From: a virus
Taxonomy: Duplodnaviria > Heunggongvirae > Uroviricota > Caudoviricetes
DNA length: 64,000 bases
Reading direction: 5' to 3' (one strand)
Virus record (IMG/VR): IMGVR_UViG_2585427708_000005
Shown here piece after piece: positions 29,141-29,840 of the stretch; within the stretch, counting starts at the first letter, position 1, and every line of letters begins with the position of its first letter. The position numbers and the translations under genes were made by a program. The notes below the pieces were generated by a model. It searched no databases. It had not been told where the DNA came from and worked only from the letters and a program-made list of their open reading frames with translations.

Positions 29141-29840
29141 GTGGACCTGTAGATTGGGATATGAACCCGTTACAGGAGAATGCTCTTACCTGTTACGTGC
29201 TCCGTTTCGTGGAGCTAACGGCGGGTGATCAGACCGCACCAGACTGGACTTATTTCAGCGTTATGCTCATGCCAGAGAATCAAACTGTGATGGTCGGTGC
29301 TGAACTCCGACACAGGGTTGTAGCAAGCCCCGCAAAGCGCGCACTACTGTAGTTGCGGCACATCAGCCTGTGCATTCACCACAATGTTGAGAACACTGGT
29401 TGTCACGCGGCAACGCAACATTTATTCGTAGATTGGGATATGACCCCGTTACGCCAGTGTTCTCAACGTTGTAGTTGTTATGCGTATTCTCTTACTAACC
29501 GCACACCAATACATTTCCCATCACGTTCATTTGTCTCGAAACGTGAATACTTAAGTTCGCCGTTAATAATCGCTGTTACAACCCGTATCCCGTTAAACGC
29601 CCACATATTTCGCTCCATTTACACACATTACCAGTCGCCGGTTACGGTTCCGGCCAGGCCTCTTCCTCAACGGGGTGTTCTCCATACGGACTACCGTTTA
29701 TTGGTCGTTCCTGCGGTTTATGTTGTGAAGCCAGATGCTTATCTTCTGGTTGCTTCTAAGATCTGCACTTCATCACAACGGTAAGAGCACTCGATGCATT
29801 TAAGCCAGGCCCCATAAGGGAGAATGCTCTTACCTGTTAT
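29141..29840. repeat. Repeat-rich, structured non-coding region between upl and the tRNA cluster
   Basis: Direct repeats gtagattgggatatga[a/c]cccgttac (29150, 29432) and gagaatgctcttacctgtta (29176, 29820); 18-bp inverted repeat gttgagaacactgg (29383..29400 versus 29453..29470). Confidence 0.5.

Follow-up and report, generated by a model that had tools for sequence, protein, structure and literature searches.

A repeat-rich region of a P1-like phage-plasmid as a probable array of three hairpin and tRNA-like RNA units

What does a region of about 700 bp encode that lies beside a tRNA cluster, is full of repeats and has no convincing open reading frame (ORF)? The region in question spans positions 29,141 to 29,840 of IMG/VR record IMGVR_UViG_2585427708_000005, of which the whole analysed stretch of 64,000 nucleotides (nt) is referred to here as the window. 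The window derives from a P1-like phage-plasmid, and over the region it is 98.6% identical to Escherichia phage vB_EcoM-Ro157c2YLVW; the corresponding part of phage P1, between trnT and tciA, carries annotations for two hypothetical genes on the plus strand, upl and plp. A first-pass annotation made from the sequence alone had proposed tRNA-derived remnants, a structured RNA or a recombination hotspot. The analysis presented here indicates that the region very probably encodes three tandem paralogous RNA units, designated A, B and C, on the minus strand, each composed of a hairpin (D1) followed by a tRNA-like domain (D2).

The repeats that drew attention to this region are located where they had been reported. 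The 25-nt direct repeat (29149-29173 and 29428-29452) is identical at 24 of 25 positions and the 20-nt repeat (29176-29195 and 29820-29839) is exact, and neither found a match, with up to two mismatches allowed for the 25-mer and up to one for the 20-mer, in 100 dinucleotide-preserving shuffles of the window. The exact 20-nt core is enclosed by a 33-nt repeat of 85% identity (29166-29198 and 29810-29842), and a third repeat family of 24 nt has three copies, starting at 29111, 29372 and 29766. The inverted repeat, initially described as 18 bp with a loop of roughly 50 nt, has 22-nt arms in our analysis (29378-29399 / 29454-29475) that are 91% complementary and 54 nt apart, and further inverted repeats of like kind occur at 29125-29138/29177-29190 and 29780-29792/29822-29834. 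What had been missed is the transcribed strand and the fact that the repeats are the paired stems of three paralogous modules: units B and C share the 25-nt repeat as a small minihelix in their D1 loops, units A and C share the 20-nt repeat as the 5' arm of D1, and the D1 stem of unit B accounts for the 22-nt inverted repeat. The feature also overruns the originally noted interval, reaching to about 28993 on one side and, considered as a system, to about 30580 on the other. The T-arm-like repeat ends are real on the minus strand (GGGUUCAUAUCCC and GGGGUCAUAUCCC, with a 3-bp stem and a 6-7-nt loop), but they sit in variable hairpin loops and are not what connects the region to tRNA.

The surroundings of the region comprise, all on the minus strand, dmt, the C1-controlled promoter and operator Pban/Oban (239/241 identical to the annotated promoter/operator of P1), the tRNAs, cargo genes, tRNA-Ile2(cat) (27897-27822) and ban. 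Because the flanking features are all on this strand, the region is placed by its sequence context inside a predicted 2-3-kb untranslated leader of the C1-repressed ban operon, with the minus strand as sense. Judging by position, the units are co-transcribed with tRNA-Asn, tRNA-Tyr and tRNA-Thr upstream and with tRNA-Ile2 and ban downstream, and the fold z-score is -4.4 on the minus strand versus -2.2 on the plus strand. The parts of the three units are as follows, where P1 (the closing stem), P2 and P3 denote helices of D2 and P1 in this sense is not to be confused with the phage.

29774..29841, minus strand: D1 hairpin of unit A, stem base CAUAACAGGUAAGAGCA...UGCUCUUACCGUUGUG, loop of about 35 nt, -33.9 kcal/mol, z -4.1.
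29722..29779, minus strand: D2 of unit A, a short form with closing stem GUUGUGAUGAAG/CUUCACAAC and a T-like hairpin (CCAGA AGAUAAGCA UCUGG) that abuts the 3' strand.
29379..29474, minus strand: D1 hairpin of unit B, stem CAACGUUGAGAACACUGG/CCAGUGUUCUCAACAUUG, -50.2 kcal/mol, z -5.9.
29284..29385, minus strand: D2 of unit B, the canonical tRNA-like element, helix P1 AUUGUGGUG/CAUCACAGU; its minimum-free-energy fold is a cloverleaf.
29119..29197, minus strand: D1 hairpin of unit C, GGUAAGAGCAUUCU/AGAAUGCUCUUUCC, formed from the inverted repeat 29125-29138/29177-29190, -40.1 kcal/mol, z -5.3.
28993..29124, minus strand: D2 of unit C, an STnc100-like tRNA-like domain (29124-29001) followed by a U-run, closing stem GUUGCGGUG/CACCGCAGC, fold z -3.1.

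The base of D1 is conserved as 5'-CAAC-A-GGUAAGAGCA...UGCUCUUWCC-GUUG-3', interrupted by a bulged A and in most cases a U.U mismatch, and the upper stem and loop differ between units within an overall length of roughly 17-21 bp. The stem of unit B is unlike those of units A and C in sequence, with pairing retained, and it encloses two inner hairpins, one of which bears the 25-nt repeat; the other copy is borne by the inner minihelix of unit C. The hairpin of unit A is 91.5% identical to one in Klebsiella phage MK54. A set of 54 distinct D1 stems has a median length of 17 bp, and native arms pair over 16.8 bp versus 15.3 bp when their partners are shuffled (at most 15.9 in 200 shuffles). Full compensation is seen in many stems, as exemplified by GGAAGGACACUGG/CCAGUGUUCUUCC, AAUCGCUUUG/CAAAGCGAU, GGGAAGGACACUGG/CCAGUGUUCUUCCC and GGAAAUCGCUUUG/CAAAGCGAUCCCC, and 41 of the 54 are more stable in the minus-strand sense because of G.U pairs. 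The loops, by comparison with the stems, are hypervariable (30-110 nt) and often hold T-arm-like (GGGUUCGANUCCC) or anticodon-arm-like hairpins. Set beside RNase III hairpins of the T7 early or rrn type, which offer about 20 bp or more of nearly uninterrupted double-stranded RNA between cistrons, D1 has its median of 17 bp, rising to 19-21 bp when the base is included, together with the bulged A and the U.U mismatch.

D2 comes directly after D1, its first strand GUUGYGRUG pairing with a downstream CAYCRCAAC. In its layout, a closing stem (GUUGUGGUG/CACCACAAC) occupies the acceptor position and a hairpin the position of the D arm, a variable insert stands in for the anticodon arm, and the T position is taken by a 5-bp hairpin stacked on the 3' closing strand. 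The commonest type, which includes unit B, presents in order a closing stem NNNN-GGUG / CACC-N'N'N'N', the linker AAU, P2 (GCGCA GGCUGA UGCGC), a variable insert of 40-170 nt and P3 (GCCGG AGAUCAGCA CCGGC), which sits directly against the 3' closing strand. The loops of P2 (GCUGA) and P3 (UCAGC) are complementary, and from their sequences these two small loops can kiss in the manner of D and T loops. In unit B, P2 (GCACA GGCUGA UGUGC) spans 29358-29373 and P3 (GUCGG AGUUCAGCA CCGAC) spans 29293-29311, again with complementary loops, and on these sequence features the unit is a member of the D2 family as defined here, by the core GGUG-AAU-P2 ... P3-CACC with complementary loops and a covarying outer stem that closes it. 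P3 abuts the 3' closing strand in all of units A, B and C, the corresponding T-like hairpin of unit C being CCGGG AGGAA CCCGG at 29010-29024. The U-run that follows unit C is present in the window variant; other P1 relatives lack it. Homologues of the unit A D2 in Sashavirus and SSU5-like phages possess a compensatory closing stem, GUUGUGGUG/CACCACAAC.

The pairing of D2 was assessed in 41 sequences cut down to their conserved parts. In this set the paired cells amount to 97.1%, and both partners vary in 13 of the 24 pairs, values that none of 500 shuffles attained, while controls with slid alignments gave 26-53% paired. Since the selection of the sequences demanded pairing in P1, P2 and P3, the paired percentages of these helices are overestimates, a bias that does not touch their compensatory changes. 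The sequences were chosen without regard to the kissing helix, which is paired in 98.5% of cases, with three of its five pairs covarying (GCUGA/UCAGC versus GUCGA/UCGAC). The outer part of the closing stem, analyzed in 61 species, extends by 3.9 consecutive pairs versus 1.4 with shuffled partners (maximum 1.8 of 500), over 25 different flanks. A covariance model built here from 54 diverse D2 sequences, named R1, scored unit B at 73.2 bits (E 4e-17, with a close homologue in the training set) and unit C at 27.6 bits (E 3e-5). The suggestion of a structured RNA is thereby borne out by minus-strand stability through G.U pairs, by covariation in every tRNA-like helix, the absence of which had been named as a ground for doubt, and by the R1 score of unit B; folding yielded the cloverleaf for the D2 of unit B, and the accompanying Rfam scan returned no family at threshold besides tRNAs.

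The distribution of these elements extends far beyond P1. The exact 23-mer GGTGAATGCGCAGGCTGATGCGC occurs in 102 species-representative genomes, among them Enterobacterales, many Burkholderiales, Pseudomonas, Halomonadaceae, Xanthomonadales, some Alphaproteobacteria and a few metagenome-assembled genomes of other phyla. With low-stringency blastn, parts of the region matched in 364 phage records, and at least part of a unit was found in 1162 of 5426 complete E. coli genomes; no RefSeq RNA gene annotation lies under the E. coli matches listed. Phage lambda carries one unit, which starts a few bases after the tR' terminator of 6S RNA. Other units are found in the late leaders between the Q antiterminator and holin genes (Klebsiella phage 6 LV-2017, Cronobacter phage ENT47670), in structural-gene gaps adjoining tRNAs (Sashavirus, Klebsiella phage MK54) and in nut-to-N leaders (Providencia, Edwardsiella and Yersinia prophages). 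Their location is always an operon leader or an intergenic gap, and their orientation agrees with that of the flanking genes (42:2 upstream, 35:10 downstream). A riboswitch-like leader tied to a single downstream gene was ruled out, the downstream ORFs being heterogeneous in the 102 species loci. Because R1 misses both the D2 of lambda and true STnc100, several D2 subtypes must exist that one model does not unite. Permissive scans with Rfam 15 of the region, four lambdoid loci and eight distant loci matched no family to D1 or D2 and gave only tRNAs, sub-threshold STnc100 and chance matches to miRNA hairpins, and no open-access paper was found that prints these sequences or describes these elements. 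To judge by Rfam 15, the annotation in RefSeq and the literature that can be searched, the D2 family is undescribed.

How, then, are the units related to tRNA? Like tRNA (RF00005), D2 combines a closing stem, a hairpin in the D position, a hairpin in the T position stacked on the 3' strand and a contact between the two loops. Tails resembling CCA are frequent, with CCA, ACCA or ACC following the closing stem in about 22 of 61 species loci but in none of the three window units. Unlike tRNA, it has no anticodon arm, the T-like loop lacks the T-loop sequence, and the D/T contact is a Watson-Crick kissing helix of 5-6 bp. Genuine tRNAs take the D2 slot behind D1: at loci L217 and L287 a tRNA-Arg (68.6 bits), and at locus L229 a tRNA-Gly, start 2-3 nt into the GUUG junction right after a normal D1. 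RNase P matures the 5' end of every pre-tRNA, and D1 must therefore be a leader removed by RNase P in these phages. Two loci, L312 and L275, carry intermediates with a canonical D arm, a hairpin in the T-arm position and a bloated anticodon loop; the T arm is canonical in L312 only, which shares with D2 the acceptor GUUGUGG/CCACAAC and the 3' strand CCGGC of the T stem. Of the tRNAs that lie no more than 1.5 kb from a unit, 21 of 21 share its strand. Hence the connection with tRNA that had been suggested holds, through the fold of D2 and the real tRNAs in its slot, and not in the sense of decaying sequence: the idea of remnants as decay is unsupported because the units are conserved and covarying across very distant hosts. 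On comparative evidence it is established that RNA structure on the transcribed strand is under selection, that the fold has tRNA topology, that real tRNAs occupy the same slot and that the units are positioned in leaders and intergenic gaps.

As for function, we tentatively favor by analogy the reading of D2 as a tRNA-like processing, or punctuation, signal. RNase P would cut at the junction of D1 and D2, and the 3' tRNA-processing enzymes would cut after the closing stem of D2. Such cleavage would break the untranslated leader into stable pieces: upstream fragments whose 3' end would be protected by D1 as a hairpin cap, tRNA-like RNAs set free, and downstream mRNA that starts with a structured 5' end. 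It would also detach regulatory leader RNA from the genes that follow. As a by-product, homologous recombination would use the repeated conserved stems as substrates, adding, removing and swapping units, tRNAs and cargo genes between phages. The MALAT1 mascRNA and mitochondrial tRNA punctuation are known tRNA-like processing signals, and the C4 antisense RNA of P1 and P7 is matured by RNase P. Passages of PMC1920247 describe plant mitochondrial t-elements, too, as tRNA-like processing signals. Like D2, t-elements, mascRNA and tRNA punctuation are non-decoding tRNA-shaped folds within long transcripts whose proposed sole job is to attract tRNA-end nucleases; unlike D2, they are eukaryotic or organellar, and the cleavage of D2 is a prediction. 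We know of no bacterial or phage example of such a fold. The TMERs of murine gammaherpesvirus 68 (MHV68) are viral tandem units of a tRNA-like fold and hairpins, pieces of which are released by host tRNA-processing enzymes; their order is reversed relative to the units described here, in which the hairpin is upstream of the tRNA-like fold, and in the lack of any sequence similarity the comparison is one of analogy only.

Several observations weigh against this interpretation, or against the membership of particular units. D2 was never recognized as a tRNA by ARAGORN or the Rfam tRNA model, which in the window found only Asn, Tyr, Thr and Met(cat) tRNAs and none in 28993-29842 even at E<=10. 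Its T-like loop has 9 nt, not 7, and the closing and T-like stems together stack to about 13-14 bp; RNase P measures 12 bp. The window units lack a CCA tail, being followed by AUAAAC (unit A), UUUGAU (unit B) and the U-run (unit C). Unit A is barely detected by R1, at 10.3 bits, and is for that reason considered a degenerate member; the 73 bits of unit B are partly obtained by construction, since the R1 training alignment held a near-identical P1-type unit B, and the thermodynamic z-score of its D2 (-0.65) is unremarkable. That the loop sequences and GGUGAAU are nearly invariant across phyla seems more than processing alone would require, and processing leaves unexplained why a boxA-like word, UGCUCUUU, stands on the 3' arm of D1 at a constant distance of 13-16 nt upstream of D2 in 17 of 96 species loci.

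The remaining features of the region and of the leader around it, on which other explanations draw, are listed below in the order of transcription from Pban, the two plus-strand ORFs coming last.

30555..30580, minus strand: terminator-like hairpin with U7 in the early part of the ban leader, Pban/Oban lying about 170 nt upstream.
30413..30553, minus strand: tmRNA-tag-like module (transfer-messenger RNA, tmRNA), with a hairpin at 30499-30530, a tag frame at 30461-30493 and a pseudoknot at 30413-30447.
30293..30373, minus strand: module 0, a fourth D1-type hairpin, CAACAGGUAAGGGCGCUGG/CAGCGUCCUUUCCUGUUG, upstream of the tRNAs.
29843..30089, minus strand: tRNA-Thr(tgt), tRNA-Tyr(gta) and tRNA-Asn(gtt), directly upstream of unit A in the transcript; called by ARAGORN, Rfam tRNA 41.9-69.9 bits.
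29637..29718, minus strand: spacer after unit A, conserved in P1, P7 and D6 and matching Citrobacter phage phiNP.
29476..29636, minus strand: 161-nt insert, absent from P1, P7 and D6 and present in about 8 of 74 P1-like loci.
29478-29606, minus strand: 42-aa ORF with a GGAG Shine-Dalgarno sequence in the 161-nt insert, annotated as hypothetical in phage Ro157.
29199..29273, minus strand: conserved pre-unit-C leader with hairpins GGUG...CACC and GCUCC ACGAAAC GGAGC, antisense to the P1 upl ORF.
29161-29352, plus strand: upl-equivalent ORF of 63 aa, from the P1 annotation, judged not to be a gene.
29353-29784, plus strand: plp-like ORF, from the P1 annotation, judged not to be a gene.

In Klebsiella phage 6 LV-2017 and Cronobacter phage ENT47670, homologues of the pre-unit-C leader stand ahead of D1 in the leader between Q and holin, with 1-nt indels that disrupt the upl frame. 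The tmRNA-tag-like module lies in the same leader as the units, about 120 nt upstream of module 0. Its tag frame GCAAACGATGATCTGATGATGGTAGCGGCCTAA, read as ANDDLMMVAA*, has 10 codons and no start codon and is preceded by a hairpin and followed by an H-type pseudoknot. Phage loci hold 19 nucleotide and 11 peptide versions of the tag (e.g. ANEEMYLAVA, ANDDVVLMAA), all of 10 codons plus a stop, which differ by synonymous and conservative changes, and the other frames are full of stops; by inspection, both pseudoknot stems show compensatory changes. The module resembles tmRNA in its start-less 10-codon frame opening with GCAAACGA (AND...), in its hydrophobic ending of AA or VA plus stop, and in the hairpin before and the H-type pseudoknot after the frame, and it differs from tmRNA in that no alanine-type acceptor stem (G3.U70) was identified. 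Rfam scored it at 24.1 bits for tmRNA_permuted (gathering threshold 47) and 11.6 bits for beta_tmRNA. A full tmRNA around the module was considered and rejected, ARAGORN making no tmRNA call in 314 records. The linkage of the tag module to D2 is found in only one of the 102 species loci, and outside enterobacterial phages the two rarely go together.

A comparison of the dmt-to-ban interval across 74 P1-like loci addressed the proposed recombination hotspot. The interval varies from 1.0 to 5.1 kb and holds one to five units, and the tRNA sets vary as well (Asn or Arg, with or without Tyr, Thr, with or without Ser). L031 and SJ46 carry a hybrid whose 5' half comes from unit B and whose 3' half comes from unit C, with the joint in the 25-nt repeat; in L034 the joint between units A and C falls in the 20-nt repeat; and in L068 module 0 is joined to unit A by a deletion in which the tRNAs were lost. 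Among P1 relatives there are thus three independent junctions, of deletions or hybrids, located in the 25-nt repeat, in the 20-nt repeat and in the shared stem base. The deletions end exactly in repeats, the repeats act as recombination breakpoints, and the proposal of a hotspot is supported. In P7 and D6, tRNA-Ser and a stretch homologous to the lambda D2 replace part of the region; the variant cargo of the unit C loop in P7 (L003, 2500-2640) and D6 (L004) is homologous to the lambda late-leader D2 (L210, 3075-3160), and this homology shows that RNA modules have been exchanged between P1-type and lambda-type phages.

Could the units instead be genes of trans-acting, Hfq-dependent base-pairing small RNAs (sRNAs) of the STnc100 or PasD kind, with the stems as scaffold and the hypervariable D1 loop and D2 middle as seeds? 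We regard this as unlikely, although it has points in its favor. A conserved scaffold with hypervariable inserts is the pattern observed, and the D2 of unit C matches the STnc100 model RF02076 at 38 bits (E 1.5e-6, model positions 31-147 of 206). Unit C shares with STnc100 the outer stem caUGGUG...CACCAug, the AAU that follows it and a 5-bp hairpin (CCGGG AGGCA CCCGG) abutting the 3' strand, and it links two subtypes because it matches both STnc100, below threshold, and R1. STnc100 and PasD also occupy the same niche, the leader or late region of temperate enterobacterial phages. Passages of PMC12370729 place STnc100 75 nt after stx2B in Stx phages and cover it in Stx phages and outer membrane vesicles (OMVs), and passages of 10.64898/2026.05.13.724894 place PasD near the Q antiterminator and treat STnc100 and PasD as prophage sRNAs with a shared structure and different seeds. 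A tRNA-like reading, kissing loops and a very wide host range, as found here, are absent from those passages. Against the sRNA explanation, the match of unit C lies below the gathering score of 47, units A and B have no match to RF02076, and true STnc100 (L209) has no D1 and is missed by R1; units A and B and most other members are without a terminator or U-run, for which reason release of an sRNA would need processing, and the sRNA explanation is therefore compatible with processing as a downstream use of it. A second proposal, that the units are cis-acting elongation elements, in which the boxA-like word recruits NusB/NusE-type factors or the structure denies Rho loading in the 2-3-kb leader, strikes us as distinctly unlikely. 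The 3' arm of D1 reads CAGUGCUCUUUCC, to be compared with the rrn boxA CACUGCUCUUUAACAA. The word GCUCUU[U/A]/CCUCUUU occurs less than 100 nt upstream of D2 in 20 of 96 species loci (background 1.4%), 17 of them at the fixed distance given above, and includes beta-proteobacterial versions, the flanks of which covary. In Providencia, Edwardsiella and L409 a canonical nut boxA, CGCUCUUUAACA, is found 57-66 nt upstream of D2 instead, accompanied in Providencia and Edwardsiella by a boxB-like hairpin just upstream of D2 and an N-like arginine-rich ORF just downstream; L409 has the same boxA word and an arginine-rich ORF. As in the rrn leader and the lambda nut sites, behind the UGCUCUUU word comes a GU-rich strand (GUUGUGGUG) whose pairing partner is a trailer further downstream, and some D2 copies stand directly behind canonical boxA and boxB. 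Units also occur in antiterminated operons, after lambda tR' and in the Q-to-holin leaders, and a connection of the D1 word with Nus factors and antitermination is possible on this sequence evidence. Unlike rrn boxA and nut, however, the D1 word is tied up in the pairing of a 17-bp stem, and the form of boxA that NusB/E binds is single-stranded; a boxA-like word is missing from the vicinity of D2 in about 80% of loci, an anti-Rho role alone needs neither conserved loops nor a kissing helix, and to our knowledge the P1 ban operon has no antiterminator.

The fold retains only the acceptor, T and D-elbow part of tRNA and discards the anticodon arm, and its loop and junction sequences are almost invariant across distant hosts, as might be expected if D2 RNAs were decoys or mimics for host or defence proteins that read the tRNA acceptor or elbow, for instance toxins that modify the CCA end or enzymes of tRNA processing and modification, and, together with the tag module, could disturb or imitate trans-translation; the leaders are expected to be strongly transcribed early or late in infection, and the tmRNA-tag-like frame is in the same leader. 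The case is wholly circumstantial, the window units have no CCA ends, the tag module accompanies D2 at a single species locus, and we consider a decoy role highly unlikely. The view that the region is non-functional debris, made of decayed tRNA genes and of duplication or recombination scars that hitch-hike, can point to the free variation in unit number among P1 relatives, to the deletion of most of the region in L034 and L031/SJ46, to the 13 nt of the unit C loop that are missing in Ro157 and to the degenerate look of the unit A D2. It is made highly improbable by the compensatory substitutions in every helix and by a 23-nt core that is identical in 102 species from several proteobacterial classes, on account of which purifying selection on the RNA fold is indicated, at least for the unit B type. 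It is extremely improbable, finally, that the region encodes the plus-strand proteins Upl and Plp (annotated as putative lipoprotein in P1), even though the P1 reference annotates both genes with predicted promoters and upl is intact in four of five alleles among P1-like loci. Neither upl nor the plp-like ORF matches a Pfam family; among P1-like loci, upl shows no synonymous and four non-synonymous substitutions, none of them at a third codon position, a non-coding pattern; 1-nt indels and stops interrupt its frame in homologous lambdoid DNA, and the 13-nt deletion of Ro157 takes out its start codon. The plp frame overlaps tRNA-Thr in P1 and is split here by the 161-nt insert, and the conserved features are the base-paired stems. 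The initial description of the region as free of a convincing ORF consequently stands for upl and plp, and not for the 42-aa ORF of the insert, which may, from its sequence, be a gene: its relatives form one 42-aa protein cluster (19 contigs) among 5.8 billion proteins.

Other known elements were also tried as candidates. Integron attC sites were rejected by inspection, the flanks CAUAAC/GUUGUG misfitting the RYYYAAC/GTTRRRY cores and the loops not being palindromic; the ORF list contains no integrase-like ORF of at least 30 aa in 27000-32000. The ends of miniature inverted-repeat transposable elements (MITEs) or insertion sequences were set aside on the same lack of palindromic loops and with no recombinase nearby. 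A hammerhead or other ribozyme, suggested by the words CUGAUG and CGAAAC, was dismissed with no Rfam ribozyme model matching. Intrinsic terminators were discounted likewise, D1 hairpins being without following U-runs; only unit C in this variant has one.

Some further observations concern the neighborhood. The boxA-like word of the D1 3' arm, UGCUCUUUCC (CGCUCUUUUUCUU in Betaproteobacteria), is carried on the minus strand of the window by the hairpins at 29119-29197, 29774-29841 and 30293-30373, and also at loci L316, L344, L345, L384 and L392. Relative to P1, the window has an extra tRNA-Tyr(gta) (29923-30009, minus strand) between tRNA-Asn and tRNA-Thr; in other P1-like loci tRNA-Arg(tct) replaces tRNA-Asn, or tRNA-Ser(tga) lies within the module array. 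The cargo between unit C and tRNA-Ile2 varies among P1 relatives, and in the window (27925-28969, minus strand) a 78-aa membrane ORF and a 275-aa SPFH/Band 7 lipoprotein (PF01145, 1e-30) replace the tciA/B/C cassette of P1. The Dmt methyltransferase (30762-34049, minus strand) has 1095 aa versus about 754 aa in P1, an intein-like insert interrupting its C5-methylase GGTPC|Q motif (LAGLIDADG_3 29.9 bits; Hint_2 28.1 bits, just below cutoff). The layout of the hairpin and U7 at 30555-30580, the neighborhood of which P1 labels a 'dicF-like region', resembles pR'-6S RNA-tR' of lambda, where a D1-D2 unit also comes next. In lambdoid contigs, a DicF-like hairpin with a U-run follows D1-tRNA or D1-D2 units (L217 7215-7264, L278 and L211; Rfam DicF 22.7 bits, sub-threshold).

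Beyond the tentative reading of D2 as a processing signal, it is conceivable, though doubtful, that D2 represents an undescribed class of phage-borne tRNA-like RNA, present in many bacterial lineages and even in model phages of the lambda and P1 types, in which a mimic of the acceptor, T and D elbow held by a Watson-Crick kissing loop would recruit a conserved host machine, RNase P or another elbow reader, to untranslated operon leaders, accompanied in P1 and some lambdoid phages by the tag module ANDDLMMVAA. If so, such leaders would carry a viral toolkit of translation-RNA mimics, and the tag module raises the question of whether phages tamper with or imitate trans-translation. The finding concerns an unannotated structured RNA in model phages, with 23 nt identical from the Enterobacterales to the Burkholderiales, in P1-like phages, where the P1 annotation assigns part of the region to two hypothetical proteins, and with related D1-D2 units in the late leader of lambda and in about a fifth of complete E. 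coli genomes. Conserved stems that act as breakpoints for the gain and loss of cassettes offer a concrete mechanism for the mosaicism of this hypervariable P1-like locus. If D2 is a processing or recruiting signal, phages would use tRNA mimicry to organize long untranslated leaders, which would explain the clustering of phage tRNA genes, sRNAs of the STnc100/PasD type and cargo genes at these sites.

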